Source: a virus. From it: a stretch of 64,000 bases of DNA. Below are positions 4,916 to 59,152 of this stretch, piece after piece (positions within the stretch are counted from its first letter, which is position 1; the number at the start of each line of letters is the position of its first letter). The notes below the pieces were generated by a model, which made no database searches, was not told the DNA's origin, and saw nothing but the letters and a program-made list of their open reading frames with translations. A program made the position numbers and the translations under genes. The DNA lies in IMG/VR virus record IMGVR_UViG_3300024339_000005; one strand, given 5' to 3'.

Positions 4916-5145
4916 TATCGTGTTCCTGTCCAGTTACATTCGGAGCAACCCACTTGATATCTTGGTGGGTGAGACATTAGAGCCATCATTGGGTTTACAT
5001 CAACCAGCTCGGCTTGACACATAGGGCATTCAATACCATTCAGTCGGGCGCCTGTACCATTCAAACCTGCATGGCGTTCCAGGGCTTCGGCGTCATTGTC
5101 TTTCAAAGTTTTCAACATACTATTGGTCCTAATCCTGAGGGGCAA
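4912..5145 (-). CDS. Zn-ribbon hypothetical protein
   Basis: CPMC and CSEC pairs. Confidence 0.6.
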   Translation of the reverse strand: MPLRIRTNSMLKTLKDNDAEALERHAGLNGTGARLNGIECPMCQAELVDVNPMMALMSHPPRYQVGCSECNWTGTRY

Positions 5146-5366
5146 TCTAAGGTACTACATACCATCCCATATGCTTTACCAGATTCAAACTGCCAACCAC
5201 ATTTTTCACAACTCCAAAATTTGGTAAGTGGTTCGGGAATTGTGGGTGCGGGGGCGAAGAAATCTGGAAAGCTCTTGGGGATTACCTCCCGGCGTTCAAG
5301 TTCTGTAATTCTCTTTTTGAGATCGTCAAGCGCCTTGTCCATTTCTTCAAAAGTGCGGTAAGTCAT
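5112..5366 (-). CDS. hypothetical protein with Cys cluster
   Basis: CEKC and CSTLDCP; lies just downstream of a sigma70 promoter. Confidence 0.6.
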   Translation of the reverse strand: MTYRTFEEMDKALDDLKKRITELERREVIPKSFPDFFAPAPTIPEPLTKFWSCEKCGWQFESGKAYGMVCSTLDCPSGLGPIVC

Positions 5367-6488: not shown

Positions 6489-7178
6489 TTATTCACTTCC
6501 TGGTATGACATAATACCAATCTTTCATTTTTATATTTTTACAACGGGCATATACATTTGATGTAGTCATATCAAAAGATAAGGCAGCATCCTTGGCGCAC
6601 CCAAATATTTGCCCCCGGGCATGTATTTTATATCGGCGAGTTTCCGCCGATTTTTGAATTCGCTTTTGTTGTTTATCACGGTAAACGGGGTCAGACCATA
6701 ATTCTCGCTGTTCTTTGGATTTCGTCTTTTTATTCAATTCAACAACGGCTTGTCGCCGGGCAACCGCATTTGGATTTGTGTCCCAATATGTTTGAGTTAT
6801 TTCTCTCACCTTTTGTTTGGTTTCCTCGGTTCTGGGTATAGATACCCAGCCGGTCGTGGCAATACTCTTATTGAAATAATGAGGCGAAAGTTTCACATCT
6901 AATTTCAGGTGAATAAACTTTTCCGCTTCAACCAGTTCGTGCGGGGTATATTCATCATGGGTTTCTATAATATCAAACCTGAAAAGTTCCGGATGTTCCT
7001 TCACTTCCTTTTTCCACCAATCCCTAATAGTCAAATTACCGGTGTACCAATCTTGTTGTTTTGATGATGGTGAACCCATATATTTTACATCGTAATGATA
7101 CTTGGAACCAATATAGAAAAATGGCGGCGTTTTGTTTTCAACATGGGGTAAATAAGTAATCTTATAGATAATATTCAT
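6489..7178 (-). CDS. Seg-like GIY-YIG homing endonuclease
   Basis: IIYKITY...FYIGSK, YMGS, YFNKS; late promoter upstream; free-standing next to gp47. Confidence 0.8.
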   Translation of the reverse strand: MNIIYKITYLPHVENKTPPFFYIGSKYHYDVKYMGSPSSKQQDWYTGNLTIRDWWKKEVKEHPELFRFDIIETHDEYTPHELVEAEKFIHLKLDVKLSPHYFNKSIATTGWVSIPRTEETKQKVREITQTYWDTNPNAVARRQAVVELNKKTKSKEQRELWSDPVYRDKQQKRIQKSAETRRYKIHARGQIFGCAKDAALSFDMTTSNVYARCKNIKMKDWYYVIPGSE

Positions 7179-7756: not shown

Positions 7757-8065
7757 CTATTCTTGACGACTACTTGATTCAGAAGCGGCAAAGGATTCAG
7801 CAAGTTTATCCAATTCAGCATCAAGATCATCCTTTGAATCTAAATCAGGCATAGGCTCAAGCCAGAATTTCAGTTCCCTGATTTCCGCTTGTAGTTTGGT
7901 GATATAATCATCAAGAGCCACGCTTTCTTTTCCACTGATAACTATGCCCTGAGAAGTGCCATGAAAGCCTGTTCTATAATCTTCTGCGGCAACCCAGATT
8001 TTGGTCCAGGCTTCTCTTGCATCACTATTCATCGGTAACATCGGTATCCTCCATAAACTTTTCAA
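7757..8065 (-). CDS. hypothetical protein (likely start 8032)
   Basis: ORF directly downstream of gp55. Confidence 0.55.
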   Translation of the reverse strand: MKSLWRIPMLPMNSDAREAWTKIWVAAEDYRTGFHGTSQGIVISGKESVALDDYITKLQAEIRELKFWLEPMPDLDSKDDLDAELDKLAESFAASESSSRQE

Positions 8066-8603
8066 GTCCCTTGCGTTTCTTTATCTTGCGCCGTTTGGTC
8101 TTTTCAAAATCAACAATAAATTCATCAATATATGTTTGCGACATTTCGCCTGGTTTATAGTTGGTATCATATGAGCCAGAATCGGTGGCTTGTTGTTCAG
8201 AGGTCATATCAAATATGTTTTGGTTTTCTGTCACCTTGAATTTGGTGTAAAGCGCCTTTTTCTCTTTGGCGATCTTGCGAAGGAAAGCGTACCAGATAAT
8301 CTGTGTAAAATATGCAAATGGGTTATTGTATTTCTCGGGGTTGAAGTTGTCAATATATTGCAGACAGTTCTCAACCCCGTCCATTATCATTTCCTCACGA
8401 AAGGGGTATTGGCTGAAATTGGGCCGTGTTGATAATCGTTCACCGATTTTTAGGAAACACTCGCCAATATAGGCTGGTACTCTTGGTCTTTGCAGACCAG
8501 AGGCTTCCGCCTCAGTAACTTGGTTTTTGAATTCGACCATCGCACCATGGAAAACTTTGTTATCAACATAATGCTCCGGTTGCTTTTTCTTTTTTCTTGT
8601 CAT
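8025..8603 (-). CDS. gp55: late-transcription sigma factor
   Basis: HYVDNK, YIGECFLKI, NFSQYPFREEMIMDGVENCLQYIDNFNPEK, NPFAYFTQI. Confidence 0.97.
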   Translation of the reverse strand: MTRKKKKQPEHYVDNKVFHGAMVEFKNQVTEAEASGLQRPRVPAYIGECFLKIGERLSTRPNFSQYPFREEMIMDGVENCLQYIDNFNPEKYNNPFAYFTQIIWYAFLRKIAKEKKALYTKFKVTENQNIFDMTSEQQATDSGSYDTNYKPGEMSQTYIDEFIVDFEKTKRRKIKKRKGLEKFMEDTDVTDE

Positions 8604-8627: not shown

Positions 8628-8656
8628 AGTATACACCAATTTACTCACCCTGTCAA
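8628..8656 (-). promoter_or_regulatory. sigma70-type promoter for gp55
   Basis: TTGACA (8656-8651), 17 nt, TATACT (8633-8628). Confidence 0.8.
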
Positions 8657-8682: not shown

Positions 8683-8739
8683 TTTTTACTTGACAAATGC
8701 TTGACATGGTGTTATGATCACTATGTAGGGTTATTCAAT
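8683..8739 (+). repeat. 57-bp dispersed repeat, copy 1, containing an antisense sigma70-type promoter
   Basis: 54/57 identical to 59096-59152; TTGACA 8690, second TTGACA 8701, TATGAT 8713. Confidence 0.9.
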
Positions 8740-9181
8740 GTATCTTTGTTTTACTTCCTGGTTCAATTCCCTCTAAGATCTTCTTGAATATTCGTCTATC
8801 TGCTTCTTTTCTAGTATCTGGTTGAATTCCAGATTCTTCGGCAAGATCGAATTCTGCTTTCAATTCTTCAACTGTATCTTCATCAAACACAGGTTCCAAT
8901 TCATCAAAATACTTATGGTAATAATCTTCCAGTGAGTCGAGTATCGGAGCGATTGCGACGATGTTCATCAGCGGCACCGGGACAACTTGCCCTACGGGCG
9001 TTGGAATCCATTTAGCGAGATATGAATAATATCCATCGCGAGGGTTAGGGTCGCGTGGTAGCATGACTTTCAAGGCGTTTGTTATGTAAACATAAATCTC
9101 GTCATCTTCCACGATTTGAGCAATAATATCTTCACCGTTCATCAACTTAAAATAGCGAATTTGACCTATCAGATCGTTCAT
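8735..9181 (-). CDS. conserved hypothetical protein (Sm-like fold) downstream of uvsW
   Basis: YFKLMNGEDIIA motif; position typical of T4-like phages. Confidence 0.7.
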   Translation of the reverse strand: MNDLIGQIRYFKLMNGEDIIAQIVEDDEIYVYITNALKVMLPRDPNPRDGYYSYLAKWIPTPVGQVVPVPLMNIVAIAPILDSLEDYYHKYFDELEPVFDEDTVEELKAEFDLAEESGIQPDTRKEADRRIFKKILEGIEPGSKTKIH

Positions 9182-10625
9182 TTAATTCTACCTTATATAA
9201 GCGGTATGAGAGTTTTTCACTGGAATAGATTTTGATTCTTTCCAGGAAATGGTTCAACGTGTAGTTTCGTTTGGTCTTGTAACTTAGGTCGTCTGCTATA
9301 TCGAAAAGAACCGCCTGAGTTTTTGTATCTGACCGACGCAGGCTGCGGCCCAACGATTGCAAGTTTCTAATACGAGACTTGGAAGGACTAGCAAGTATAA
9401 GATTATGTAGATTGACAATGTTAATACCAGTTGAGAAAGTACCGTAAGAAGCCACAATAATAGCATCAGACTCCATTTCAGTAATAGCCCGAATCGATTC
9501 CCTAGTTTCTGCATCAGTTCCGCCATGAACGAAAAAGACTTTTCTACCTTTTGCTGTATGTGCTTGGATATCATCAAACAAAATCTTTCCATGTTTCTCG
9601 ACAAATTGAAATAGCAACAAAGTATTGCCTTTCAATGAAAGAGCCAGATTCCTCAAGAACCTATTTCGTGGTTCGTATGACGTAAGGAAATCCATTTCCT
9701 CTTGGTATTTATGCTTTTTATTTTCCGCTTTTAAAGCGTCTGGATATTGAAGCACAATGGCTTTGATTTTTAATTCGGCGATATGACCCTGGTCGATCAA
9801 TTCCTTGGTGCTGATAACCTTATTCACTCGCCCGAATAAACCCTCAAGTACCAGTTTGTGCGTTTCAGAACCATCGAGGGTTCCTGTCAAACCAAATCTG
9901 TTGGTCACATCGGTCATTTTCTCAAGGATACTGGTCAATGATTTCGCTTTGAATAGGTGAGCCTCGTCACCAATCACAACATCAAACTGGTCAAAGTAGG
10001 CTTTAGGCATTTTATAAGCCGACTGCCATGTGGTGATGTACGTCTGTTGCGGTGCGTCTTTATCCTTACCAGCCATGATAAGGTGCGTTTCATATTCGCC
10101 CTTTGAATACTCCAAAAAGTCGGTACTCATCTGGTGGACCAGCGAAGTGGTCGGTACGATCACAAGGGCTTTCTTGTCGTAGTACCGCAACAACAGATAT
10201 ATGATAAGGGATTTGCCTGAGGCTGTCGGCGACAGTAGCAATTGTCGGCGTTCTCTTACGCAATCAACAAAAGCCTTATATTGGTAATCTCTCGGTATTT
10301 TTGCCAGACGCAGGGAGTTGACAAAATCAACAGCCTCGCTTGCAGAAAATTCAGCATTGCCTTGTAAGCCCTCGTAGGTGATTTCGTAATCCCTATCGGC
10401 TGCGAACTTTTCAATATACGGTACAAGACCATAGTAGATGTTCTGGTTGCCGTAGTTGAACAAGCGTATGTACCCATCCCAATAACCGTTTTTTACGGCT
10501 GGAATGAAATGGGCGTTCTCTACCTTAAACTGAAAGTAATCGGTGAGTTCTTGGGCCATCCATTTCTCACAGTGGATTTTCACATATACTTCACTGATTT
10601 TTGATATCGTTAATTTATCTGTCAC
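9147..10625 (-). CDS. uvsW: RNA-DNA/DNA-DNA helicase UvsW
   Basis: PRDYQ, SPTASGKS, DEAH, GLTGT, QSLGRSLR. Confidence 0.97.
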   Translation of the reverse strand: MTDKLTISKISEVYVKIHCEKWMAQELTDYFQFKVENAHFIPAVKNGYWDGYIRLFNYGNQNIYYGLVPYIEKFAADRDYEITYEGLQGNAEFSASEAVDFVNSLRLAKIPRDYQYKAFVDCVRERRQLLLSPTASGKSLIIYLLLRYYDKKALVIVPTTSLVHQMSTDFLEYSKGEYETHLIMAGKDKDAPQQTYITTWQSAYKMPKAYFDQFDVVIGDEAHLFKAKSLTSILEKMTDVTNRFGLTGTLDGSETHKLVLEGLFGRVNKVISTKELIDQGHIAELKIKAIVLQYPDALKAENKKHKYQEEMDFLTSYEPRNRFLRNLALSLKGNTLLLFQFVEKHGKILFDDIQAHTAKGRKVFFVHGGTDAETRESIRAITEMESDAIIVASYGTFSTGINIVNLHNLILASPSKSRIRNLQSLGRSLRRSDTKTQAVLFDIADDLSYKTKRNYTLNHFLERIKIYSSEKLSYRLYKVELNERSDRSNSLF

Positions 10626-11065
10626 CCGGAGCCTTGTGTAAATTTCTGGAACGCGATTGCGTGTCCTATTGCAAAGGAACGGTTATTGATACTGCGAAGA
10701 ATTTCCTCTATGAACTTCAATTTCTGTTCTTGAATGTTCAACAATTCACTGTGCCGAATAACCTCTACATCATTATAGACATATTTATCTGCACCGGAAT
10801 TCGACTTGGCCGCTTGGATGCCATCATAAGCCCAACCCAGGTCATCCAATTCCTCACGGTCCATTTGACCAAGATAGAAACGGCGCTTGTTGGATTCGAG
10901 GCGTTTGTTGTCGGCATCTAATTTGACCCACCGAAGGCGTTCTTCATTCCAAATTTTCAGGTACTTATTATGAAGCGACGGTATGTTAGCCGCTTCAGTA
11001 TCAAGATCGTATTTGTCAATGGCGCAATCGGCATCCCATGACTCTTGTAATGCTGTAAGGTTCAT
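10622..11065 (-). CDS. uvsY: recombination mediator UvsY
   Basis: IPSLHNKYL, RFYLG, INNRSFAIGHAIAFQKF; adjacent to uvsW. Confidence 0.92.
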   Translation of the reverse strand: MNLTALQESWDADCAIDKYDLDTEAANIPSLHNKYLKIWNEERLRWVKLDADNKRLESNKRRFYLGQMDREELDDLGWAYDGIQAAKSNSGADKYVYNDVEVIRHSELLNIQEQKLKFIEEILRSINNRSFAIGHAIAFQKFTQGSG

Positions 11066-12644: not shown

Positions 12645-13181
12645 ATGAGCGCATACGACAATCAACCAGACAACATCAATGGTATTACACCACTCAATTT
12701 CCGGTTCCAAATGAAGCGGTTACCTGGGGTAAACTATTTTGCCAAGTCTGCAACAATACCTGATATCACTCTGGGTGAACCACAACATGAAAACATGTTT
12801 GTTAGGATTCCTTTACAGGGTGATAAACTTACTTTCGCGCCTTTCAACTTACGTTTCATGGTCGATGAAGATCTGACCAACTATCTTGAAATCTATAATT
12901 GGATGATTGGTCTTGGCTTCCCCGACGATTTCTTACAGTCCATTCACAAAGCCCCAGGTGAAAAAATCAACGAGGCTAATTTACGCGGCGAGGGCACCGC
13001 ATCGGATGCCACTCTAACTCTCATGACCTCACACCGTAACCCCAATGTCGAGGTTACCTTTGTCGATATGTTTCCAATCAGCCTGTCTTCACTTGAATTC
13101 AATGTTGAAGAAACTGATATCCAGTACCTCCAGGCCGACGTTACTTTCGCTTATCGGAAGTTCTCTCTAAATGTTCTTTAA
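12645..13181 (+). CDS. gp3: tail completion/tube terminator protein
   Basis: FRFQMKRLPGVNYF, FMVDEDLTNYLEIYNWMIGLGFP, FPISLSSLEF. Confidence 0.9.
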   Translation: MSAYDNQPDNINGITPLNFRFQMKRLPGVNYFAKSATIPDITLGEPQHENMFVRIPLQGDKLTFAPFNLRFMVDEDLTNYLEIYNWMIGLGFPDDFLQSIHKAPGEKINEANLRGEGTASDATLTLMTSHRNPNVEVTFVDMFPISLSSLEFNVEETDIQYLQADVTFAYRKFSLNVL

Positions 13182-14359: not shown

Positions 14360-14533
14360 TTTTCAACACCAACCATATATGAGTACAGGGTCTTGCCATC
14401 TTGATTGGCAAGAAATTCCGCGATAGCGGGAACGGGATTTACCGAACCATATCCGCCATGCCAGTCGCGCCATTGGCGCGCTGTATCGGTATATTCGACG
14501 GCTTCTTCGGCGGCGAGTTTTCTAGTTTTGTCA
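14356..14533 (-). pseudogene. small gene with a 1-nt frameshift in an A run
   Basis: GAGGA then ATG ACA AAA CTA GAA AAC; one extra A gives MTKLEKLAAEEAVEYTDTARQW...VGVEK*, whose TGA overlaps the ligase ATG. Confidence 0.5.
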
Positions 14534-14541
14534 TGGTATCC

Positions 14542-14760
14542 TCAATCGTTAAAGACCAGCAGGCTGACACAGCCCCCGGCTTGTTTGTAAACGAAATGAC
14601 CAGCGTCGTTTTGATAATCCAACACAAAAGGCAATTCGTTACCCATGCTGGTATTCATTGCCATAGGCCATGCGCCAGGGGCTAGCCCGAGGTCAGAGGC
14701 GTCAACGCAATATTCTTCAATACCGGATGATTTCCAAACCATATCATACGTGATTTTCAT
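14542..14760 (-). CDS. hypothetical early protein
   Basis: Second gene after the promoter at 14980-15008; DASDLGL.PG.WP motif. Confidence 0.6.
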   Translation of the reverse strand: MKITYDMVWKSSGIEEYCVDASDLGLAPGAWPMAMNTSMGNELPFVLDYQNDAGHFVYKQAGGCVSLLVFND

Positions 14761-19980: not shown

Positions 19981-21363
19981 TTACCCCACTGCTTTCAGAA
20001 TTGCGTCTTCGTTATGTCCATCTTTTTGTAGGGTTTTCATAATGGCTTCATCACTTTTACCCTTGCCCCTCAAGCGTTTGACTTCTCTTTGTGCAAATTC
20101 TAAGGACGATTTTTTGAGAACCTTCATCATTCCGGCGCTCTGCTTATCAGCGTTTTTTTTAGAAAGGGCTTCGTCAATAAAACTACCGAAAGATTCGAGA
20201 CCCTCTTTACGAGTTTCTTTGTTCTTGGCTTTCAATGCTTTCTTGGCTGCGTCTTCTGCATCATCTACAGATTTTTCAACACCGTCAGCCGCTTTATGAA
20301 CATCACGGATGCCTCTCTTGGCACCTTTAGCAGCCAGAACGGCTTTACCAGCGTCGGAAACTTCATCAAGTTCAACTTCTTCTTTAACACCAGAAGTGAT
20401 AATATCAAACGCTTTTTTAGAAGCGGCCTCTTGGCTCATACCTTTTTTAACAAATTCCTTTGTCATTTCAATATGGCGCTTGATGCTGTTTTCAATCGCT
20501 TTACTACCACCGGCTCTTGGGCGATTAGCTTTGATTTCATCAAGTTCAACTTCCTCTTTGATGCTTGCAACAGCCTTCCAAAACTTAGGGTTACCTGTCA
20601 GTTTAGAAATGACTTGTACCACACGCTTTTTGATTTGGTCTGCGTTATCAGGCGCAAAGGAACCGAACATGAAATCGTCTTCAAATGGTCTGGAACCACG
20701 ACTAAAGATATGGATGATCGAATTCCAGTAATTTGTTTCTTCTTTGTCTTTGATATGCTTCTTGGCAAACGCCTTCATTTGTTTACCGATTTCCATATAA
20801 GCCTTGGCTTGGTCAGATTTGTTGAGCATCTTACCTTGAGCAGCGGCGAAATAAGGAATCGCTTTTAGTTGTAGTGCGCCTTCAGCCAATTCAGTTTCTT
20901 CGTTTTCAATCAGATTATAATAGTCGATACCTTTAGCAGCCTTCGCGTCATAACCACTAATGAACTTTTTGACCTTTGCGGGATCATCTTTGATAGTAAC
21001 ACCATCTGGTCCTTTGGACCGACCCATGCGATAGGTAAATTTAGCATTTAGACCTTTGGCTTTTGCTGCCTTCAACATTTCTTCTGGGTCAAAATCAAAG
21101 TTTTCTTGATCTGCATTGAATTCATATTTCTTAGCTTCACCCAATTCAGTTTCTTCAGCATGAACAGAAGACCGAGCGCCTGTTGCTTTGCCTTTGAAAA
21201 CCTCGTCACCCGCAGTTGGGTGCTTAGTCATATCAGCCAGCTTCTTGCCCTTTTTGAGCGAATTAGCGGCTTTGACTTCTGGATTTTCAGGCTCCATTTC
21301 CTGTGGGTTTGCCTCGGGTACCTCTTGAAGGTCTCGGCGCATTTGTCTAAATGATTTACTCAT
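19981..21363 (-). CDS. modular prohead core/internal protein at the gp68 position
   Basis: Charged protein between gp67 and gp21; four EE(T/V)EL(G/A/D)E linkers. Confidence 0.7.
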   Translation of the reverse strand: MSKSFRQMRRDLQEVPEANPQEMEPENPEVKAANSLKKGKKLADMTKHPTAGDEVFKGKATGARSSVHAEETELGEAKKYEFNADQENFDFDPEEMLKAAKAKGLNAKFTYRMGRSKGPDGVTIKDDPAKVKKFISGYDAKAAKGIDYYNLIENEETELAEGALQLKAIPYFAAAQGKMLNKSDQAKAYMEIGKQMKAFAKKHIKDKEETNYWNSIIHIFSRGSRPFEDDFMFGSFAPDNADQIKKRVVQVISKLTGNPKFWKAVASIKEEVELDEIKANRPRAGGSKAIENSIKRHIEMTKEFVKKGMSQEAASKKAFDIITSGVKEEVELDEVSDAGKAVLAAKGAKRGIRDVHKAADGVEKSVDDAEDAAKKALKAKNKETRKEGLESFGSFIDEALSKKNADKQSAGMMKVLKKSSLEFAQREVKRLRGKGKSDEAIMKTLQKDGHNEDAILKAVG

Positions 21364-21535
21364 CAGGTTCCTCGTCTGTTTGGGATTGAAGCCACGTCGC
21401 GGCTATAGAAGCCCGCTTGACGTTCAGAGCGTCTGCAACTTTATCGCCCATTACTGCGGTCACGGCTTCTTTTACTTTGCCTGCTTCACCCGCTAGTGAA
21501 TGCCTTACGATATCTGTTGTTGTGTATTCGGTCAT
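21356..21535 (-). CDS. gp67: prohead core protein
   Basis: Small helical protein after the portal with late promoter and AGGAGA; KVADALNVKRASIA pattern. Confidence 0.7.
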   Translation of the reverse strand: MTEYTTTDIVRHSLAGEAGKVKEAVTAVMGDKVADALNVKRASIAATWLQSQTDEEPDE

Positions 21536-24572: not shown

Positions 24573-25334
24573 ATGAAATATACCTACTTGATAGGCTGGA
24601 AAGAAAAGAATGTCTGGTACTATGGTGTACGCTATGCCCGTGGCTGCAAACCAGAAGACTTGTTCACCAGCTATTTCACCTCATCAAAATATGTCCATGA
24701 ATGTATGAGATCCTGGGGTCTGCCCGACGTTATTCAGGTACGAAAGACATTTGAGAAACGTCATAATGCCCTCGTATGGGAGCAGAAAGTCCTGCGCCGG
24801 ATGCAGGTGTTGAACGAAACGAAATGGCTCAACAAAAACATTTCGGGCGGAATTGCCTTTGATGATGTAATCCGCAAGAAAATGTCTCTGCGAAAACTGG
24901 GGCGTATCTGGGTGTATAATGAAGACGGTAAAATTATGATAGACAAAGACCTTGAATCATATTACCTGAGTCAGGGATATAAGAAGGGCCATGGTCAAAG
25001 CCAGAAGGGTGAGAAAAACAATATGTACGGCAAAAAGCATAGCGCCGAGTCGAAGGCTAAAATAGGCAAGACTAATAGCCGTTCGACATTGACAGAAGAA
25101 GGCCGGAAAGTGAAAGCGGAATTCACTCGCAACAATAATCCAATGGATAATCCTGATATTAGAGCGAAGCATAGGGAAGCCACGAAAGCCTCTGGCACCA
25201 GTTCTCGTAAAGTCACCGATGGCTATAAAGAATACTCATCAATTCGTAGTGCCAATGAAGACTACCCAGAGGTGAAATATCAAACCTTGTATTCTTGGGT
25301 TGTAGGACAAAAAAATGGGTGGAACTATTGCTAG
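24573..25334 (+). CDS. Seg-like GIY-YIG homing endonuclease with NUMOD3, antisense between gp18 and gp19
   Basis: YTYLIGW...YYGVRY...YFTSSK, WLNKN, NNMYGKKHSAESKAKI. Confidence 0.85.
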   Translation: MKYTYLIGWKEKNVWYYGVRYARGCKPEDLFTSYFTSSKYVHECMRSWGLPDVIQVRKTFEKRHNALVWEQKVLRRMQVLNETKWLNKNISGGIAFDDVIRKKMSLRKLGRIWVYNEDGKIMIDKDLESYYLSQGYKKGHGQSQKGEKNNMYGKKHSAESKAKIGKTNSRSTLTEEGRKVKAEFTRNNNPMDNPDIRAKHREATKASGTSSRKVTDGYKEYSSIRSANEDYPEVKYQTLYSWVVGQKNGWNYC

Positions 25335-30629: not shown

Positions 30630-31502
30630 TTATTCCGTATCATGTTTAGTGCCATCATCAAAAAATGTAAAGTCTTGGGCAAAACCGAAATCATCCGAGG
30701 CATCAATGGTAGAAGTTGCAACCGAAGCAGCGGAGTTGGTTGTTGGTGTTCCGTCTGCTAATAGACCTGGTGTTGTGACAATTCGTGAGGCTGTCGCTGT
30801 CGAACCAATGGCTGTGTCTGGAATCGTTTCAGTACCATCGGAAGCGGGAATGAATGTGTCTGTAATCACTCGCTTGATAACTTCGGCTGACTTCACTGGT
30901 CCATATAGATATGCTTTGATCTGAAAATCAAGGGTCCATATCAAAGCCCGTCGTGTTTGAAAGTCACCCTCATAGGCATCTTCTACAGCCGTTGATACCA
31001 GCACGATAGGAATATCCGTCTTGAATCCCATTTCTGGTATCATGTTAGCGGAGACAGTCCAATCTGGGGTAAAGTACGGTAGAATCTGTTGAACGATTTG
31101 TGCACCGTCGTTGGCGTTTTTGACCATGATAGACAAGGACATTTCGATATCATACGGCACACCGACATACTGAGACAATAGTTTTTGTGGGTCTGTTGTC
31201 GAGTTAGTCACGTTTCGTTGACTTGACTGTTTAGCCCGTTCTGGTGAATAGGTCATGCCTGTGATCTCAAAACCCATTCGTGGTAGCTGAATAGCCACAT
31301 CACGATTAAGGTCTGGGTCGGTGTTCAACCTGACTAAAAATTTCTCGCGTGGTCCATACGCAATAGGAACCTGTATCGTCTGTTGACGAACACCTTGATT
31401 GTCTACTCGTTCGATTGTGAGATCGTTGAAAAGCCGCCCAAAGATAATGATATATTTGCGTATCGACTCATGGTCGAAATATTTGTTACCTCCGAATCCG
31501 AT
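30630..31502 (-). CDS. gp15: tail sheath stabiliser/terminator with non-canonical (ATC) start
   Basis: Frame extends above the track start through YFDHESIRKYIIIFGRLFNDL...VPIAYGPREKFL; LPRMGFEI, QILPYFTP; AAGGAGG 9 nt before ATC. Confidence 0.9.
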   Translation of the reverse strand: MGFGGNKYFDHESIRKYIIIFGRLFNDLTIERVDNQGVRQQTIQVPIAYGPREKFLVRLNTDPDLNRDVAIQLPRMGFEITGMTYSPERAKQSSQRNVTNSTTDPQKLLSQYVGVPYDIEMSLSIMVKNANDGAQIVQQILPYFTPDWTVSANMIPEMGFKTDIPIVLVSTAVEDAYEGDFQTRRALIWTLDFQIKAYLYGPVKSAEVIKRVITDTFIPASDGTETIPDTAIGSTATASRIVTTPGLLADGTPTTNSAASVATSTIDASDDFGFAQDFTFFDDGTKHDTE

Positions 31503-31671
31503 TGTCAGAGCCCTCCTTTATGAACCGTTCTCTATACGAGCATGTTGTTTTCATAGCGTTCACAATGTCTTCCAGTTTGCTTTCAGTCTTGAGGTCTTTA
31601 TTCATATGCGCTTCAAAATCAGGTTCTTCAACCCATTCGGCGCAATAATGGCACCATATTTCTTTCATCAA
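31486..31671 (-). CDS. small C2H2-like hypothetical protein
   Basis: WCHYC...FEAHM; GGAGA Shine-Dalgarno. Confidence 0.5.
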   Translation of the reverse strand: MMKEIWCHYCAEWVEEPDFEAHMNKDLKTESKLEDIVNAMKTTCSYRERFIKEGSDNRIRR

Positions 31672-31683
31672 ATATCTCCATCT

Positions 31684-31691
31684 TATAAATA
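31684..31691 (+). promoter_or_regulatory. T4-type late promoter for the antisense HNH gene
   Basis: TATAAATA followed by a structured leader. Confidence 0.8.
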
Positions 31692-31750
31692 GTTGTAAGT
31701 CGCGGTACTACCAATACCCACTAACTCTATAGCCCCGGAAGGCAACAGCA

Positions 31751-32389
31751 ATGTCACATCTATTTATACAGAACAAATACACAAGATGGTATTTCAATAT
31801 CATCCGTAACGCACAATCACGACCTATTCCCGAAGGATATGTTGAAAAGCATCATATCGTGCCTGAATCTATGGGTGGTGAAGAAACGGTTTCTCTTACC
31901 GCAAAAGAGCATTTCATTTGTCACGCTCTATTGGTTAGAATGACCAAAGGTTCTGACCATCATAAAATGGTGTTTGCGTTCAACATGATGGGTGTGGACG
32001 CCCATGGCAAACGGTATGTTTCCAGACTACATGAATACAACAGGGTAAAAGTGGCTAAGGTTATTAGTGAATCGAATAAAGGCAGACAGCCGAGATTGGG
32101 TGCTGTTCTTTCCGATGAAACAAAAAAGAAGATAGGTGACGCCCATCGCGGCAAAGTACCATCAAAAGAATTGAGAGAATTATGGAGTAAACAACGAACT
32201 GGTGCTGGCAATGGCAACTATGGTAAAAAACACTCCGAGGAGAGAAAGAGAAAGATAGGGCAAAAATCCAAAGACAGACAGTATCCAGTTTCGTGTGTTC
32301 ATTGTCAGAAGACCGTTTCTAATCAGTTAACCTTATCTCGCCATCATGGTGATAGATGTAAATCTATTCAGCTTCGCCAAACGGGTTAA
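31751..32389 (+). CDS. HNH homing endonuclease with NUMOD3, antisense between gp14 and gp15
   Basis: YVEKHHIVPESMGG...LTAKEHFICHALL; YGKKHSEE; C-terminal CVHC...HHGDRCK. Confidence 0.88.
   Translation: MSHLFIQNKYTRWYFNIIRNAQSRPIPEGYVEKHHIVPESMGGEETVSLTAKEHFICHALLVRMTKGSDHHKMVFAFNMMGVDAHGKRYVSRLHEYNRVKVAKVISESNKGRQPRLGAVLSDETKKKIGDAHRGKVPSKELRELWSKQRTGAGNGNYGKKHSEERKRKIGQKSKDRQYPVSCVHCQKTVSNQLTLSRHHGDRCKSIQLRQTG
31761..31768 (-). promoter_or_regulatory. T4-type late promoter facing gp15
   Basis: TATAAATA on the minus strand inside the 5' end of the HNH gene. Confidence 0.6.
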
Positions 32390-39988: not shown

Positions 39989-42424
39989 TTACTCGCCTTC
40001 AAGTTCGCCAAACCATACGGCTGAATATGATTGAACATTCCTGGCAGCACCGGCGCCGTTATAGAAGGCTAATCTACATGAGGTATTTGTGCTTTCATCA
40101 CTGCCGTCATAGTAATAACAAGTATCTGTCGTCCCGGCATCTGGTTGCATAGTAACCTGACACACATAAGGGATTTTATCCGCACCAGAAACCGATTCCT
40201 TAAAAGGTGTGGCAAATACTACATCAATGTGCCCAGTAGATACCCATGTTACACTCTCTATCCCATATGAACCGTTGATTGTGCTAGTTGAAATTGGTCC
40301 ACCAATAAGCCAAGCCTTCGCCTTACTTAAATCAATACCTTCATGTTGAATACCAAGACCCCTGACAGTTTCAGCCAGTTCTCTAAAATCCTCGGCTGGC
40401 ATATTGATTGAAGCATCGGTAGCACCAATTGCGTAATGACCCTCACCCCAAAGTTTTAGGTGTTCGAATGCGGTTGAAGCGCCATCTTCTACTGAATTTG
40501 TATAGACAAGCCCGTCCCAAATGCCTTTGTCGTCAGCCTGAACTACTGCGACCTTACCGGAAACCGGATCAACATCAACGTCAAGGACCGCATCGGTAGT
40601 ACCGGACTGTAATAAAACCAAGGCCGCTGTATCAAACATGGGTTTCTCTGCCAAATACATATTGCGTATCAAGGCGGCAGATGGCGATACGCTTGAAACC
40701 CCGGCAAAGCGGCACATTGTTAATGTGGTAGAAGTGGCGGGGTTTGTTGACCCGTTAGCCAGTGATCCGATAGCAAAAGGCATATTACCGCTGTCAGACA
40801 TAGAGCCTGTATTAGTAGTGTCAGAGGCTTCTAAAACGCCGTCAACGTACAAATAGCGTTCTGTGGATGACACGTTTACAAGGTCAGCTTTGTGCCAAGC
40901 ACCATCATCAAATGTCTCTGTTGTGGCAAGTCCACTTGCAGACGCTGATGCGCCGTTGACTTGACAATCAATAACACCACTGGTCAAGAAACTGATATAA
41001 CTCTCCACAGACCGAGCAGCATTACCAAAGCCGCAGAATACTTCGCCAGTAGAGTTGCCGGAAGACTTGAACCAGATAGCCATATGAAACGGGCCAGTGC
41101 CACAAACATCCCAATCTTCATCACTTGCGCGAGTATGGTTAATTGTTGAGCTATAACCATTATAGGCTTTAAGTTCTCCAGTAGCTCCGTCAGCGGATAC
41201 CTCAGTAACACCTGCACCGTTATTAGTCAGCGTATTCGCGTAGGGACTAAGATCAGCCGTTGCTGAATTGCAAAGCCAAACTCCTCTGGTTGTGTGAAGC
41301 ATGTAGCCAGAATTGGTTGCCCTAGTGATTGACGCAGAGGCTAATAGCTGGTTCTGCAATGAGCCTTGACCCATGCGACCAATAGTAAAATCAAGGCCAC
41401 CAGTACCGCCTAGCGCACCAATCTTCTCTCCGATGGAAAAAGCATCAGCAGAGATACCTACACTATCAAGCCCACCGTTAGATGACAGATAACTATATGG
41501 TGGGTTGACACTTTGGTCCGCAGTAATTGTATCAATCGGTCCCGCTGCTCTGAACTGTGATGTAGAATATGCAGCGAACAGCATATCTTGGCCGATGGCG
41601 ATAGCAGGAGAAGATGTTGCTGTTATCTGGATTACATCTTTAACTGTTCCATCGTTCTTAATAACAGAGGCTTGGAATGTCCCTGTCCCATACTTGACAC
41701 CAAAGGTTGGGATTTGCCCTCCTGTATTACTATCAGTTGGACCACTGGAAAGCGTATTTGCTGCAACTCCAATCACATCGTTGTTGTTCAAATTAGGGGT
41801 GTCAGTTGAGTTTAATGATCGGGGCCAACCTGTTGTGGCTTCGGCCCAAGAACCAAAATGTGGGTGGATGATATGAATGCCATCCTCGGAACCCACAATG
41901 ATATAGCCCATGCTGGCTGCAATGGAAGTCGGTGTTGCAGCACCAGTAATGGTTATTGCCGCCATAGCAGTACCACCGACAATCGTGCTATCTGTGTAAT
42001 CCCAGATCTCAACGGTCGTATCTGCGCCTGCGTCCTTGATGGTCGCTACCATGATTTTCTTCACAGTAGACAGATTGAGTTTTTCATCCCATTGAACACC
42101 ATCCCTCGCAGGACCAAAAATAACAGCGTCAACGTATGTACCATCAGTTTCAACAACACCAGAGAAAGCGGCTGAAGTCATGGCACCATTAGCAGATACA
42201 GCGCCTGTAAATGTTCCGGTTGTTCCTGCAACAGCGCCTGTAAATGTTCCGGTTGTTCCTGCAACAGCGCCTGTAAATGTTCCGGTTGTTCCTGATACGG
42301 CACCGGATGAAGTCACAGAGGTAGCGGTCACGGCTCCTAGATTAATAGGAACCGCTGTGTTCGCTGATAAGTCCTGAAGTTTGGTGCTTTCAAGAACGTC
42401 GGTATCAATTGTGTTAATTGCCAT
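39989..42424 (-). CDS. tail fibre/receptor-binding protein with LamG domain (paralog B1)
   Basis: LamG DDGAWHKA...LYVDG; ends FGELEGE like 34908..37046. Confidence 0.8.
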   Translation of the reverse strand: MAINTIDTDVLESTKLQDLSANTAVPINLGAVTATSVTSSGAVSGTTGTFTGAVAGTTGTFTGAVAGTTGTFTGAVSANGAMTSAAFSGVVETDGTYVDAVIFGPARDGVQWDEKLNLSTVKKIMVATIKDAGADTTVEIWDYTDSTIVGGTAMAAITITGAATPTSIAASMGYIIVGSEDGIHIIHPHFGSWAEATTGWPRSLNSTDTPNLNNNDVIGVAANTLSSGPTDSNTGGQIPTFGVKYGTGTFQASVIKNDGTVKDVIQITATSSPAIAIGQDMLFAAYSTSQFRAAGPIDTITADQSVNPPYSYLSSNGGLDSVGISADAFSIGEKIGALGGTGGLDFTIGRMGQGSLQNQLLASASITRATNSGYMLHTTRGVWLCNSATADLSPYANTLTNNGAGVTEVSADGATGELKAYNGYSSTINHTRASDEDWDVCGTGPFHMAIWFKSSGNSTGEVFCGFGNAARSVESYISFLTSGVIDCQVNGASASASGLATTETFDDGAWHKADLVNVSSTERYLYVDGVLEASDTTNTGSMSDSGNMPFAIGSLANGSTNPATSTTLTMCRFAGVSSVSPSAALIRNMYLAEKPMFDTAALVLLQSGTTDAVLDVDVDPVSGKVAVVQADDKGIWDGLVYTNSVEDGASTAFEHLKLWGEGHYAIGATDASINMPAEDFRELAETVRGLGIQHEGIDLSKAKAWLIGGPISTSTINGSYGIESVTWVSTGHIDVVFATPFKESVSGADKIPYVCQVTMQPDAGTTDTCYYYDGSDESTNTSCRLAFYNGAGAARNVQSYSAVWFGELEGE
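42198..42294. repeat. 33-bp tandem repeat, about 3 copies
   Basis: Unit ACAGCGCCTGTAAATGTTCCGGTTGTTCCTGCA; encodes GAVAGTTGTFT. Confidence 0.95.
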
Positions 42425-43863: not shown

Positions 43864-45411
43864 TTAAACCTCCGTCAACAGCCAGCCCTGCGTAGTGTTG
43901 AAATACACTAGCGAGAAAGCGGCTCGTTCTGTGGAAACTGTCATATCGGTATTTGATCCTTGAATAGAAATGCTGTTAGCGTCACGCGCCACAGTAATGT
44001 TATTTGTGTCTGCGGTTCCTTGCGTGTCGATAATACGAACCCAATCACCTTGTGTTGGTGTTACAGGCAAGGTCATTGTCACGGCACCACCAGTTGTCGA
44101 AACGAAGTATCTACCACCGGCGACCATCGTTGTGTTTGACGTTGCTGTGTTCCATGTTGTATCGGTCTTGGCGAAGGTAACGGCGTCGTTTGCAATCTTG
44201 ATTGTCGAAACTGCGTTGTTTGCAATCTTGACTGTTGAAACTGCGCTGTCTGCGATCTTGACTGTTGAAACTGCGCTTGCAGATAGTTTAGCCGTGGTCA
44301 CCGATTGGTCTGCGACAACAGCCACATTAGAAGTAAATCCGGTACTACGAATAACAACAGGTACACCGTTCGCTGGTGAAGCGTTCAAGGTGATTGTGTT
44401 ACCAGAAGCGGTATAGTTCAATTCTGAATCTTGAACAACACCACCAACCATAACAAATACGCCGTCTGAGTTTGCGGGTGAAGTTGTTACCGTAAAGGAG
44501 TTAGCGGTACCGTTTGCTGTCCATCTATGAGACTTCCATAGTTTGGCATTCACGGCTATTTTCTCAAACGTCACAGAACCAGTCTGAAGTTTTGATGTTC
44601 CTATGGTATCGTCTGCGGCTGTGACGGTCACATCAGCCGATGATAGACTAATGGTGTAAATCTGTGAGAGGTTGCTAGGCGCGGAAGTGAAGGTTACTGT
44701 ATTGCCGTTGACTGAATAATTTGTCACCGGTGTTTGAATCGCGCCGCCTACCCATACCATAAGGGATGAAGTGTTAGGAGGGCTTGTTGTTACAGTAAAT
44801 TCGGTACAAGCACCAGTGCCTGTAAATTCGTCGTGATCGAGAGAAGCGCCACCGGCTGAACTTTCAGCCCATGATAAGGTACCAGCGCCATCTGTTGTCA
44901 GAGCATATCCGGCTGTTCCGCCGTCGATGTGCAGGCTGGCAACGCTACCGAAGTTTATATTAGCCGATTCAAAGACCGTGTTTGCGCCAGTCCATGTTGT
45001 GTTGGCTGCGATTGAATGAGAATGGTCAAATTGGTTGTTGGCGATTGTGCCTGTAAGGTCGCTGAAATCGTTTACAGCCGAACCCGCTGCCCATTCAAGT
45101 AAACCGGAACCGTTCGTTTGTAGATAGTACCCGCTGGTACCACCCATGATATGTAGGTTGTTCGCTTGTTGGATTATCACATTTGATGTGGCAACAAAAT
45201 CAGTGTTTCCATCAAAGCTGGCGGAAACAGCAATGGTCAGATTGTTGGAACTAGAAGTGTTTGTGGTAAACGTGTTTACGTGTGCGCCAGCAACATGAAG
45301 GTAGTTGTCTTGACCTTGGGTAATGTCATTGATCTTCGTCGCAGTGAGGTTATAATTCGAAACCCACTCTGCGAAAGTATTTTGCACATATACGTTAGAT
45401 AGAAGCGCCAT
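43864..45411 (-). CDS. baseplate-fibre connector with gp9/gp10-like C-terminal domain
   Basis: NTFAEW N-terminus; C-terminal YFVSTTGGAVTMTLP..P..GD.V.IID...LVY....GW. Confidence 0.7.
   Translation of the reverse strand: MALLSNVYVQNTFAEWVSNYNLTATKINDITQGQDNYLHVAGAHVNTFTTNTSSSNNLTIAVSASFDGNTDFVATSNVIIQQANNLHIMGGTSGYYLQTNGSGLLEWAAGSAVNDFSDLTGTIANNQFDHSHSIAANTTWTGANTVFESANINFGSVASLHIDGGTAGYALTTDGAGTLSWAESSAGGASLDHDEFTGTGACTEFTVTTSPPNTSSLMVWVGGAIQTPVTNYSVNGNTVTFTSAPSNLSQIYTISLSSADVTVTAADDTIGTSKLQTGSVTFEKIAVNAKLWKSHRWTANGTANSFTVTTSPANSDGVFVMVGGVVQDSELNYTASGNTITLNASPANGVPVVIRSTGFTSNVAVVADQSVTTAKLSASAVSTVKIADSAVSTVKIANNAVSTIKIANDAVTFAKTDTTWNTATSNTTMVAGGRYFVSTTGGAVTMTLPVTPTQGDWVRIIDTQGTADTNNITVARDANSISIQGSNTDMTVSTERAAFSLVYFNTTQGWLLTEV
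44191..44275. repeat. 30-bp imperfect tandem repeat, about 3 copies
   Basis: Encodes AVST(V/I)KIAxx fibre shaft repeats. Confidence 0.8.
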
Positions 45412-56388: not shown

Positions 56389-58179
56389 TTACACGGTACG
56401 ATCTTCAACAGAGGTTATGGTTGTGTCTTTGATATTGATAATTTGAGCAAGTGTCGGTGTTATGTCGTTGTCAGTAGGTGTGATAGAAATTTCCAGTATG
56501 CCTGAATTACCTACAGCCGTAGGGTTGAAAGCATCAAGAGATACAGCACCCGTATCATAATTGACAGTACCTGCAGCAGCCTCAAGAATGACCTTATCAC
56601 CACCATCCCAGCGGTATATCTGAATAATACCAGAACCATCATCTTGTAGAAAAGAGGTGAAGCCAAGGTAAGTGAATGACGTAGACTGAATAACACCAGT
56701 ATGAGCCGTATGAGGATCATGAGTTTCCGTATGTAGAATAGCGTTCTTAAACTGAATGGTGTATGAGGTAGCCACACTCACGGTTGGTGTTATCTCCATC
56801 ATCATTTTCACACTAGACAGGTTACCACGAATAGAGTTATCCGTTGCATCAATGACGGTAGAGAAAGCAGAGAACCTGAACTTGTTACCGAAGTCATCCA
56901 AGGTATCTGTCTGATATGTCGCAATCGAAGCAGCCACTTCACTCTCAATGGTACCTGCGTTCTTTGTTGTCAAGTCTGGGTTCCACCTTATCTCGACAGT
57001 CGGGATAACATAGAGGAATTCAGCATCAACCACGATAGGGTCAATACTCATTACATTGCGAGTCTTCAGTGAGGCTACCAAGATTTCTTTACGGGTGTCT
57101 GAAATGATGGTACCTACCGAGGGATTTACTGCGAGATACACACGGCCGTAAATAGGTGGGTCATTATCTTCACCACCCCATACGTTGACCGAGGTGAAAT
57201 CTGCGTTCTCTGCCATGATAACACGCTCGTAATCACCTTGAGTGACCACACGGTTCTGTCTCTCGTAGTACAGGGGTGCATTAAACTTAACAGCAGCCAC
57301 AGTTTCTAACTCTCGACCACCGGCAGCCGATGTTGTTGTCGCAATCGTCACATCACTATAACCAGCAATGGCAGAGAGGTTAGTGAATGAGGAGGCTCCA
57401 TTACCCTGTGTGGTGTTACAAACGTGGTAGTCAATGATGACCTGATTACCATCTGATAGAGATACGCCGAGGATATCGTCACCGAAGTAGATGCGGAATT
57501 GCTCGTCGTCTGTCTCCTCAAGGAAATAGACTGTTGACTCACCTGTAAGTTGGGTTATGTCGTCTGCAAGGGTGTATGTTGTGATTGTAGAAGAACCTGC
57601 AGATGGCTTGACTGTTATGCCAATACGAGTCGTATCGACATTTTTATTCGGTATGACATATTCAACAGGGCTACCTGTGTCAACGGTATATGTGTGGGTT
57701 AGTGGATAACCTTCAGCTATCGTCACTCCCGTTGCGACATAGGTGTTTGCACCACTCTTAGTTATCAACGTACCTGATGAGGTCGTGAAGGTCAGTGTTA
57801 TGTCATCGACCACAGTGGTCATTTGTGTATTGACAGGAATGGAGATACTGTCAGGTGAATCAGTAGGTACGATGGTGATGGTTACTTCTGCAATAGCACC
57901 GGCGGATGACGATGGTGTGTACCCTAATTCTTGCGCTCTTTCAATCACGTTGTTACGAAGTTGGGCCGACTTCAGGAACGACTCGTTGGCGACCATATTT
58001 GTATAATAAGCGTTGTAATGTGTATTGTAAGCCAGTATGTCCAGTAAGGTACTGATATTAGAACCATCAAAATCATAGTCAGCAAAATTCGATTGTGCCG
58101 CCATAAAGGTCTTCAATGACGCACGAATATTACCAAAATCCAGTTCGGTGACTTGTAGGGCTGAATTAGCTGTGGCCAT
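56389..58179 (-). CDS. gp6: baseplate wedge subunit
   Basis: DYDFDGS, LDILAYNTHY, IYFGDDILG, QNRVVT, WGGEDNDPPIYG. Confidence 0.96.
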   Translation of the reverse strand: MATANSALQVTELDFGNIRASLKTFMAAQSNFADYDFDGSNISTLLDILAYNTHYNAYYTNMVANESFLKSAQLRNNVIERAQELGYTPSSSAGAIAEVTITIVPTDSPDSISIPVNTQMTTVVDDITLTFTTSSGTLITKSGANTYVATGVTIAEGYPLTHTYTVDTGSPVEYVIPNKNVDTTRIGITVKPSAGSSTITTYTLADDITQLTGESTVYFLEETDDEQFRIYFGDDILGVSLSDGNQVIIDYHVCNTTQGNGASSFTNLSAIAGYSDVTIATTTSAAGGRELETVAAVKFNAPLYYERQNRVVTQGDYERVIMAENADFTSVNVWGGEDNDPPIYGRVYLAVNPSVGTIISDTRKEILVASLKTRNVMSIDPIVVDAEFLYVIPTVEIRWNPDLTTKNAGTIESEVAASIATYQTDTLDDFGNKFRFSAFSTVIDATDNSIRGNLSSVKMMMEITPTVSVATSYTIQFKNAILHTETHDPHTAHTGVIQSTSFTYLGFTSFLQDDGSGIIQIYRWDGGDKVILEAAAGTVNYDTGAVSLDAFNPTAVGNSGILEISITPTDNDITPTLAQIINIKDTTITSVEDRTV

Positions 58180-58657
58180 TGTTTGTTCCTCTGCGGGCTG
58201 TGAAGCCTTGGTGCTGTTTGTATTTTCCCGAAACAGTTCTCATCATATTGCCTTGGTCTAATCCATGGGCGATACAATATTTCTTCAGGTCTATTACTGT
58301 TGTTTCTTCACCATCAGGTGTGGTGACTATCCATTCTTTACCCTGTCTTACGCTACAGGCGATTCGTTGTTTTTGTGTTCGACGTAGACCTGTTTGGGCT
58401 AATATTTGTCGTTGTTTTGCTAGGGCACTCTGTTTCTTACCAGTGTTAGCAGCCTTTGTCGCCATTATATTTGCTTGTGCGCCTGATATTTGACCTGTCA
58501 AGGCTTTCCATGCAATATAATCTTGGACTTCTCCAAGCATATCATATCTGTATTTATGGTGTTCGGCGTGTTCTATAATGTCGCACCCGACTATATTACT
58601 GGCTTCATCGGTGCCGCCGGCATGGCGTGGCACAATATGGTGGTTATGATATATCAT
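58166..58657 (-). CDS. HNH homing endonuclease between gp25 and gp6
   Basis: HNHHIVPRHAGGTDEASN...EHAEHH, IAWKALTGQI; related to 15015..15548. Confidence 0.85.
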   Translation of the reverse strand: MIYHNHHIVPRHAGGTDEASNIVGCDIIEHAEHHKYRYDMLGEVQDYIAWKALTGQISGAQANIMATKAANTGKKQSALAKQRQILAQTGLRRTQKQRIACSVRQGKEWIVTTPDGEETTVIDLKKYCIAHGLDQGNMMRTVSGKYKQHQGFTARRGTNNGHS

Positions 58658-59049
58658 CTTACTCGTTCCAAAAAGACCTGGACGGTCGTGGGTGCTGTGT
58701 TGTTCTTTATGCGAAATATGATGGCCACTGAAAGTCTGTTGTCGTCTGGAACCTCGGATACATGGACGTTTAGCAGTTCGGCCCGTGGTTCGTTGTCCTC
58801 AATAGCCTCTTTGATCGCGTTCGATATGTCTTCTGCGATTCCCTGGTCAAAGTTCTCAAATAGGTAGTGCGTGACATTCGACCCAAGGTTAGGCCGAAAA
58901 GGGCGTTCATAGAATTGAGTCAGTACGATATTCTTAACGGATCTAACAACCGCGTCGTTATTCGTCAGTCGAACGAGGTCACCACTTGTAGGGTGAGCCG
59001 TGAAGGCTGTGGTGAAGTCCGAAAAGACTATATCAGTTGTTAGCGGCAT
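58654..59049 (-). CDS. gp25: baseplate wedge subunit
   Basis: SVKNIVLT..YERPFRPNLGS, EPRA. Confidence 0.93.
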   Translation of the reverse strand: MPLTTDIVFSDFTTAFTAHPTSGDLVRLTNNDAVVRSVKNIVLTQFYERPFRPNLGSNVTHYLFENFDQGIAEDISNAIKEAIEDNEPRAELLNVHVSEVPDDNRLSVAIIFRIKNNTAPTTVQVFLERVR

Positions 59050-59072: not shown

Positions 59073-59080
59073 TATTTATA
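59073..59080 (-). promoter_or_regulatory. T4-type late promoter (gp25)
   Basis: TATAAATA. Confidence 0.8.
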
Positions 59081-59095: not shown

Positions 59096-59152
59096 TTTTT
59101 ACTTGACAAGTGCTTGACAGAGTGTTATGATCACTATGTAGGGTTATTCAAT
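59096..59152 (+). repeat. 57-bp dispersed repeat, copy 2, containing an antisense sigma70-type promoter
   Basis: 54/57 identical to 8683-8739; TTGACA 59103 and 59114, TATGAT 59126. Confidence 0.9.

Follow-up and report, generated by a model that had tools for sequence, protein, structure and literature searches.

The T4 replication origins oriF and oriG are about 100 bp long and combine a pre-late promoter with an A+T-rich unwinding element (PMC3016281). The RNA made there persists as an R-loop from which the leading strand is primed, until UvsW takes the loop apart, and active T4 origins lie at switches of the transcribed strand (PMC3016281). A different layout is seen at oriE, which lies inside gene 5, contains 12-nt iterons, and has RepEA and RepEB encoded on its early transcript (PMC3016281). 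The T4 record places oriF at the gene 25/uvsY junction, where the primer RNA is the uvsY transcript and runs toward the 3' end of the convergent uvsW gene. In the same record, oriE is located inside gene 5 and its primer RNA is the complement of the gene 5 transcript.

T4 early and late genes lie on opposite strands, and early in infection the host polymerase transcribes the strand complementary to the late genes; these 'anti-late' early transcripts are a bulk property of T4. The PeSL (promoter-early stem-loop) cassettes of the T4-type phages RB49 and phi1, said to have been described by Arbiol et al. in 2010, reportedly combine a strong promoter with an efficient terminator stem-loop. They are said to occur in many copies among the early genes of hyperplastic regions, where they drive genes. 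Few marine viruses are as abundant as the T4-like phages that infect cyanobacteria, SAR11, and OM43. To our knowledge, MotA is missing from the marine T4-like phages (Kyanoviridae and allies), and none of their origins has been mapped. The sole origin statement found for these phages was the prediction of a single origin for Syn9 in a review (PMC2984593). According to the same review, antisense RNA in a T4-like phage was first reported with CfrI of cyanophage S-PM2, a discrete transcript about 225 nt long that lies opposite psbA and a homing endonuclease gene (PMC2984593).

The window, meaning the whole 64-kb stretch of DNA analyzed here, comes from a marine T4-like phage that has not been cultured. 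Among cultured phages it is closest to Methylophilales phage Melnitz, cyanophages, and Pelagibacter phage Mosig, with UvsW 50–54% identical. Nearly all window genes lie on the − strand. A first-pass annotation had reported a 57-bp repeat on the + strand, and this was confirmed by alignment and pattern search: copy A at 8683–8739 and copy B at 59096–59152 are identical at 54 of 57 positions. All three mismatches between the copies fall within the promoter spacer. The likeness ends abruptly at both flanks, with full divergence past the 21 nt that follow the −10 box. When the whole window was searched with a degenerate 29-nt core pattern allowing up to 3 mismatches, only copies A and B were matched, and none of the 100 dinucleotide shuffles used as control gave a match. 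The near-identity of A and B through the spacer suggests recent gene conversion, or selection for the same regulation.

The promoter elements given in the annotation (TTGACA-N17-TATGAT, a second CTTGACA 11 bp on, and an identical 21-nt stretch after the −10 box) were all present as described. On the + strand, each copy consists of a T-run, TTGACA, five bases, a second TTGACA, six bases including TG, TATGAT, and the 21 nt. In copy A, −35 box 1 (TTGACA, 8690–8695) stands 17 bp from the −10 box, and box 2 (TTGACA, 8701–8706) lies 11 bp past box 1 and 6 bp ahead of the −10 box. The extended −10 element TG-n-TATGAT occupies 8710–8718, followed at 8719–8739 by the start region common to both copies, which holds CTATGTAG at 8721–8728. 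From the usual spacing after a −10 box, a start was predicted at about 8723–8725. The same + strand features of copy B are box 1 at 59103–59108, box 2 (the second TTGACA) at 59114–59119 in a period-11 repeat at 59102–59124, the extended −10 element at 59123–59131, and the start region at 59132–59152, with CTATGTAG likewise inside its 21 nt and a predicted start at about 59136–59138.

Judged by their sequence, copies A and B are both examples of one conserved cassette, a promoter for the host housekeeping RNA polymerase whose two TTGACA boxes stand one helical turn apart. Both copies match the sigma70 consensus at 11 of 12 hexamer positions with a 17-bp spacer, and they are the sole 11/12 matches on the + strand of the 64-kb window. 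Both also carry TG two bases ahead of the −10 box and an upstream T-run; across the cassette family, A/T makes up 93% of the bases from about −50 to −40. Box 2 is too close to the −10 box and therefore cannot act as its −35 element, and the double TTGACA box is kept across the cassette family. The − strand has seven 11/12 sigma70 matches, none of them beyond the first 9 kb, and the majority stand shortly ahead of a gene start. The sense early or middle promoters on the − strand with −35 starts at 345, 2108, 5421, 5473, 8353, and 8656 follow a looser house consensus, cTTGACAaat ... tgtgaTATGATca, and those at 5473 and 5421 stand in tandem, 52 bp apart, ahead of gp47. As a separate observation, the two CTTGAC boxes form direct repeats 11–12 bp apart (8690–8706 and 59103–59119 in the window; L169–L248 in the family), a layout typical of sites for tandem-binding winged-helix response regulators.

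The gene order at copy A is uvsY, uvsW, 148-aa ORF, copy A, gp55, and gp47. The copy lies between the stop of the 148-aa ORF next to uvsW and the gp55 promoter. UvsY (10622–11065; PF11056, 3.8e-21), the UvsW helicase (9147–10625), the 148-aa ORF (8735–9181), and the late sigma factor gp55 (8025–8603; phrog_234, 1e-57) are all encoded on the − strand. The 148-aa ORF, which transcript A would meet first, belongs to a 'methylamine utilization'-like family found between uvsW and gp55 in cyanophages. The gp55 promoter is of the sigma70 type, TTGACA-N17-TATACT, and lies back to back with copy A at 8628–8656 on the − strand (−35 box 8656–8651, −10 box 8633–8628). A homing-endonuclease-like ORF is present inside the conserved gene run between gp55 and gp47 at 6489–7178 (−), with a weak match to the I-TevI DNA-binding domain under the Pfam cut-off.

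At copy B, the order is gp5, 304-aa ORF, gp5.4, copy B, gp25, homing-endonuclease-like ORF, and gp6. The annotated location 'near gp5' was loose here, as the copy lies between the stop of the PAAR protein gene gp5.4 (59161–59427, −) and the late promoter of the baseplate wedge gene gp25 (58654–59049, −; phrog_261, 7e-42), 1.2 kb from the end of the baseplate hub/tail lysozyme gene gp5 (60336–61628, −; phrog_430, 1.9e-96). Transcript B would meet gp5.4 first and would run antisense through it and the 304-aa ORF into gp5. The gp25 promoter was read directly as a T4-type late box, TATAAATA, at 59073–59080 on the − strand, about 22 bp upstream of the copy B −35 box on the other strand. The back-to-back leftward promoters claimed for both copies were thus found, sigma70-type at gp55 and T4-type late at gp25. 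The homing-endonuclease-like ORF between gp25 and gp6 (58166–58657, −; phrog_655/2081) likewise lies inside a conserved gene run.

Both copies run antisense to the gene flow, and no credible + strand ORF was found downstream of either one, in agreement with the annotation; only TTG-started frames of 37 aa and 85 aa occur there, inside − strand genes. No intrinsic terminator was found within 1.5 kb downstream of both copies. Rfam gave no match at the gathering score over the whole window and only noise at E up to 10 for copy A under a permissive threshold. Folding of the putative transcripts and 5' regions gave energies no better than those of shuffles. Two mini-ORFs, one an ATG-TAG within the start motif and the other a 12-codon frame of copy A, were considered and rejected; neither is shared with copy B or other clades. 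A fold of the whole 57-nt + strand of copy A with the −10 box in the loop (z −2.7) was dropped, being weaker in copy B and absent in Melnitz.

A lack of conservation in relatives had been named in the annotation as part of what would refute its reading, and on this point the reading was not refuted: the element proved strongly conserved in position in distant relatives. Eighty IMG/VR gp55 loci (gp55 about 50% identical) were scanned over ± 4 kb in 200-bp bins for promoters scoring at least 11/12. The 200 bp ahead of gp55 contained 41 such antisense promoters, compared to 0–5 in every other 200-bp bin. As a density, this was 41 sites in about 22 kb versus 22 in the remaining 479 kb, and 14 of the 22 outlying sites were the same element 590–950 bp upstream of gp55, with one extra ORF inserted. 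In about 55 of 79 gp55 loci, the stretch from the uvsW block to gp55 thus holds a near-consensus antisense promoter, and about 30% of related gp55 loci are without a strong one. The gene faced by the antisense promoter, usually uvsW itself and a small ORF in others, was co-oriented with gp55 in every locus; the antisense promoter is therefore an orphan in every locus. A sense sigma70 promoter occurs within 200 bp of the antisense one in 46 of 79 gp55 loci, the spacing of the opposed promoters ranges from overlapping to about 60 bp, and in several lineages, Syn9 among them, the two −35 boxes make up a single palindrome.

Four cultured phages from three unrelated host groups also have the element: Prochlorococcus phage P-TIM68, Synechococcus phage Syn9, Pelagibacter phage Mosig, and Methylophilales phage Melnitz. 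Starts are predicted from it near 123,698 (−) in Syn9 (NC_008296, between gene 143 and g55), near 111,826 (−) in P-TIM68 (KM359505), within 21,305–21,385 (+) in Mosig (MT647606), and within 132,261–132,341 (−) in Melnitz (MZ577097). P-TIM68, Mosig, and the 140-kb IMG/VR contig G001 carry one copy each. When IMG/VR was scanned for an exact pattern of the window's sequence, no match came back, and neither cassette type had a significant BLAST hit among cultured phages. The covariance model R1, built on the promoter with its hairpin, responded mostly to any strong promoter, with marginal E-values, and was excluded from the counts. In Melnitz (MZ577097), a 31-aa 'hypothetical protein' at 132,367–132,462 (−) (L161:4971–5066) lies antisense just upstream of the orphan promoter and overlaps the gp55 start; this is probably a false gene call where the divergent promoters lie.

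The window copies and Melnitz have a common architecture: A-tract, CTTGAC, 5 bases, TTGACA, 6 bases, −10 box, 2 bases, and CTATGTAG. Further copies in relatives, to which the annotation had pointed as a check, were sought in IMG/VR with the family pattern box2-N6-(−10)-NN-CTATGTAG, which has 18 specified bases. It matched 114 stretches, most at uvsW|gp55 and a few near gp5, and 80 of the 114 were fetched and classified. Copies antisense to local genes made up 58 of the 80, at least 54 of them at the uvsW|gp55 junction. About 10 of the 80 were ordinary sense promoters with a ribosome-binding site and ATG, and five of them lay 2.5–2.85 kb upstream of gp5.

The gp25/gp5 site is also occupied in other lineages. 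In locus L204 (gp25 40% identical), a cassette about 97 nt upstream of gp25 points toward gp5, as copy B does. The closest gp25 relatives (L081–L083, 70% identity) carry, 37 bp ahead of gp25, an antisense promoter that scores 12/12 and has a related start motif. Melnitz has a second copy at 73,656–73,711, likewise 2.5–2.85 kb upstream of gp5, a sense promoter 84% identical over 56 nt to its antisense copy, and the two Melnitz copies agree for about 30 nt past the −10 box. Both window positions thus recur in other lineages, and one copy per genome is common. The 'antisense' promoters 1.1–1.7 kb upstream of gp25 in distant relatives were rejected as equivalents, since they drive divergent genes with a ribosome-binding site and ATG. 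L081, like L082 and L083, has a second 12/12 antisense sigma70 promoter at −613 relative to gp25; it lies inside a 320-aa ORF between gp5 and the PAAR gene, is without the start-site repeat described below, and has no window counterpart. A metagenome scan for the motif returned one contig only, OCVV010612257.1 (L163:4234–4274, +), in which TATGAT and then CACTATGTAGGG, the 18-nt motif, stand behind TTGACA at 17 bp. There the motif heads an Hsp20 gene in sense orientation, the neighbours are RF-1-like and tRNA-methyltransferase-like, and no other similarity to the window was seen.

When the relatives were aligned on the −10 box, the 14 bases after it formed a 5-4-5 inverted repeat across lineages, with arms that change together (CCCT/AGGG, AAGTC/GGCTT, AAGGT/GCCTT, TGGAT/ATCCA, AACGG/CCGTT). 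In a gapless alignment of 41 sequences, 68% of cells were paired compared to 52 ± 2.7 in column shuffles. The covariation score was 0.51 versus 0.24 and was reached by 0 of 500 shuffles; slid registers gave 0.14–0.34. This covariation argues for selection at the start site. The transcript-like strand pairs better than the other strand, with a stem score of 10.2 versus 5.5, a mean folding energy of −2.2 versus −1.4 kcal/mol (shuffles −0.5), and G.T 35 versus A.C 12, a strand bias that may partly reflect composition. A stem score of 9 was reached by 79% of the antisense promoters and 11% of the sense promoters in the same loci.

In the loop, the consensus is T-R-T-Y, and its purine stands seven bases past the −10 box, where initiation is expected. 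The covarying repeat spans about −6 to +9, which is unusual for a bacterial-type promoter. Its 5' arm should lie outside the RNA, which favours folding of the displaced non-template DNA, or an effect on the initiating complex, over an RNA hairpin. A protein operator at the start-site palindrome was disfavoured because a given stem position may hold G-C, C-G, U-G, or A-U in different close relatives. In the window copies, the stem is degenerate, with one A.G mismatch and no stable fold (0.0), and CTATGTAGGGTT, common to Melnitz and locus L049, is kept instead.

The comparison with T4 oriF and oriE made in the first-pass annotation held for the transcript polarities, which match those of A and B, while other features expected of an origin (a long A+T-rich unwinding element, iterons, and an informative GC skew) were missing. 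Copy A adjoins the uvsW block and would fire toward the uvsW 3' end, matching oriF in position and polarity, and its neighbour uvsW is the gene for the R-loop-dismantling helicase. The back-to-back promoter pairs at the copies create a local switch of the transcribed strand, as at active T4 origins. A short A/T-rich stretch after the start may be a partial likeness to oriF and oriG: about 30 bp have 73–77% AT compared to 56% for the window, and the A/T fraction at +20 to +40 in relatives is 0.75 compared to a background of 0.64–0.66. The origins oriF and oriG need a long A+T-rich unwinding element, and the cassette has no clear 50-bp one; no longer A+T-rich tract was found at either copy, and copy B has 50% AT beyond about 30 bp.

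The oriF and oriG promoters are MotA-dependent middle promoters, whereas the cassette has a full sigma70 consensus with a double −35 box. TGCTTGA in the cassette resembles a MotA box but ends 7 bp ahead of the −10 box, with the full −35 element present; a MotA box is expected 11–13 bp from the −10 box. The T4 oriF promoter also makes uvsY mRNA and is without an inverted repeat around its start, whereas the cassette has no downstream gene and its relatives have such a repeat. Copy B resembles oriE in lying antisense toward gp5 from its 3' side, within the late baseplate cluster with gp5.4, and differs from it in being intergenic, outside gp5, and without iterons or ORF. Near either copy, no iterons or repeat arrays were found except the two boxes. 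In GC skew, the polarity stayed the same across both copies and across the element of P-TIM68 and G001. The skew of the window, P-TIM68, and the 140-kb contig was monotonic and coding-strand driven, and a single near-coincidence seen in P-TIM68 did not recur elsewhere. The agreement in position with T4 may reflect only module borders where early-type promoters face late genes.

Compared to the other systems, the cassettes resemble PeSLs: both are short, repeated, near-identical sigma70-like promoters scattered over a T4-type genome, and recombination has plausibly spread them or kept them uniform. The cassettes differ in having two copies only, no adjacent terminator-like hairpin, an antisense placement in late regions, and conserved positions. 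A predicted non-coding antisense transcript in a marine T4-like phage is the likeness to CfrI, but the cassettes lie at other junctions, have no defined 3' end, and are conserved far beyond cyanophages. Early transcription by host polymerase opposite to late genes would be common to the cassettes and the 'anti-late' transcription of T4, but antisense initiation in the window, where nearly all genes share one strand, is limited to one or two conserved promoters dedicated to it. The element was not described in the literature searched.

The best reading of the cassette, held tentatively and somewhat short of probable, is an origin-type primer promoter. The useful product would be the act of transcription, or a short 5' part of the transcript acting in cis, and the primer or R-loop would start DNA replication early in infection. 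Host sigma70 polymerase would initiate at about 8724 and 59137, and the RNA would stay annealed over the short A/T-rich stretch past the start. The displaced non-template strand would fold into the start-site inverted repeat that is seen in most relatives, and, once folded, it may hold the R-loop open or mark the helicase loading site. The phage replisome would then extend the RNA, and UvsW would later remove the R-loops. Copy A would be the equivalent of T4 oriF and copy B that of T4 oriE. The wider proposal, in which the cassettes serve marine T4-like phages (Kyanoviridae and allies) as origins of replication, with a consensus host promoter to make the primer and a repeat that folds on the displaced strand, and are evolutionary counterparts of oriF and oriE, is possible but doubtful.

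The origin reading draws on the quality of the promoter and its uniqueness on the + strand, on the orphan status, on the keeping of both positions and polarities, on the occurrence in either gene orientation, and, loosely, on the displaced-strand structure. The sense copy of Melnitz, 84% like the antisense one, fits a role that is independent of antisense orientation. The RNA downstream of copy A would be pyrimidine-rich and would therefore give weak RNA:DNA hybrids, which counts against an origin. So do the missing long unwinding element, the absence of iterons and of a skew signal, the start-site hairpin that is weak on average (−2.2 kcal/mol) and not stable in the window copies, the related loci without a strong antisense promoter, and the single copy in P-TIM68, Mosig, and G001. 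The element is a small, sharply defined, conserved piece of DNA, and its presence in four cultured phages makes the origin question directly testable. If it is regulatory instead, it would still be a conserved non-coding feature at the late-transcription switch, beside the late sigma factor gene.

The alternative named in the first-pass annotation, antisense RNA promoters that repress the opposing genes, is likewise possible though rather doubtful. Before the late switch, host polymerase would transcribe into the 3' ends of late operons (148-aa ORF/uvsW/uvsY; gp5.4/gp5), and premature late expression or read-through into gp55 would be silenced by pairing of the RNA with stray late messages, as for T4 'anti-late' RNA, or by polymerase collision. 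The orphan promoter does face the 3' ends of co-oriented genes at both sites, but the gene faced differs among loci, being uvsW or a small ORF, so no specific antisense target is conserved. No intrinsic terminator was found on the − strand in the interval from the uvsW block to gp55, where a converging promoter could thus act as a boundary, and the element stays at the uvsW-side boundary even when an extra ORF precedes gp55. A T4-like cyanophage is known to make an antisense RNA (CfrI, S-PM2; PMC2984593). Insulation would have little evident use at copy B, within the cluster of late baseplate genes. The cassette is also a sense promoter in Melnitz and in about 10 of the 80 IMG/VR cases, which speaks against an antisense role. 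The covarying repeat, the double box, and the spacer identity of the two copies are also left unexplained by antisense repression. Control of the back-to-back neighbour by the orphan promoter, with the transcript as a by-product, appears improbable. It could act through polymerase competition at overlapping −35 boxes, or through negative supercoils fed into the gp55 promoter or the gp25 late promoter, as divergent transcription underwinds the DNA between two promoters. The variable spacing, from overlapping to about 60 bp, means that no single coupling geometry is conserved; in addition, 14 loci have the element beside a different gene, sense copies exist, and the start-site repeat is unexplained. 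In favour of such coupling are the back-to-back arrangement of both copies, the sense promoter within 200 bp in 46 of 79 gp55 loci, the −35 palindrome of several lineages including Syn9, and the late TATAAATA box at copy B, which lies where the alpha subunits of the antisense promoter's polymerase would sit.

A discrete small-RNA gene, with the conserved 21 nt as the 5' end of a trans-acting RNA, is very unlikely. The first 14–16 transcribed nt are identical in both copies, and the Melnitz copies agree even further past the −10 box, but the window copies diverge completely past 21 nt, with no Rfam match and no significant 5' fold. A terminator was found within 500 nt in 4 of 39 relatives and none within 1.5 kb in the window, and this lack of a conserved terminator at both copies and in the 39 relatives makes a discrete small RNA unlikely. 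Equally slim is the chance of a functionless recent duplication, or of a mobile promoter cassette of the PeSL kind without a role at these sites. Recombination is very frequent in T4-type phages, the small number of differences between the copies (three) points to recent copying or gene conversion, and the same 18-nt −10/start motif heads the Hsp20 gene on an unrelated metagenome contig. Both positions are nevertheless kept where the flanking proteins are 40–55% identical and the cassette sequences differ, and the start-site covariation indicates selection. The functionless-duplication reading is largely refuted by this positional conservation.

Elsewhere in the window, + strand ORFs of 75–253 aa at 5071–5361, 12645–13181, 14458–14685, 24573–25334, and 31447–32389 break the − strand gene flow, and none of these five has a cassette copy upstream. 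Tandem repeats are present at 42198–42294 (period 33 bp, 100% identical copies) and 44179–44275 (30 bp, 89% matches), with about 3 copies each, within large − strand structural genes.
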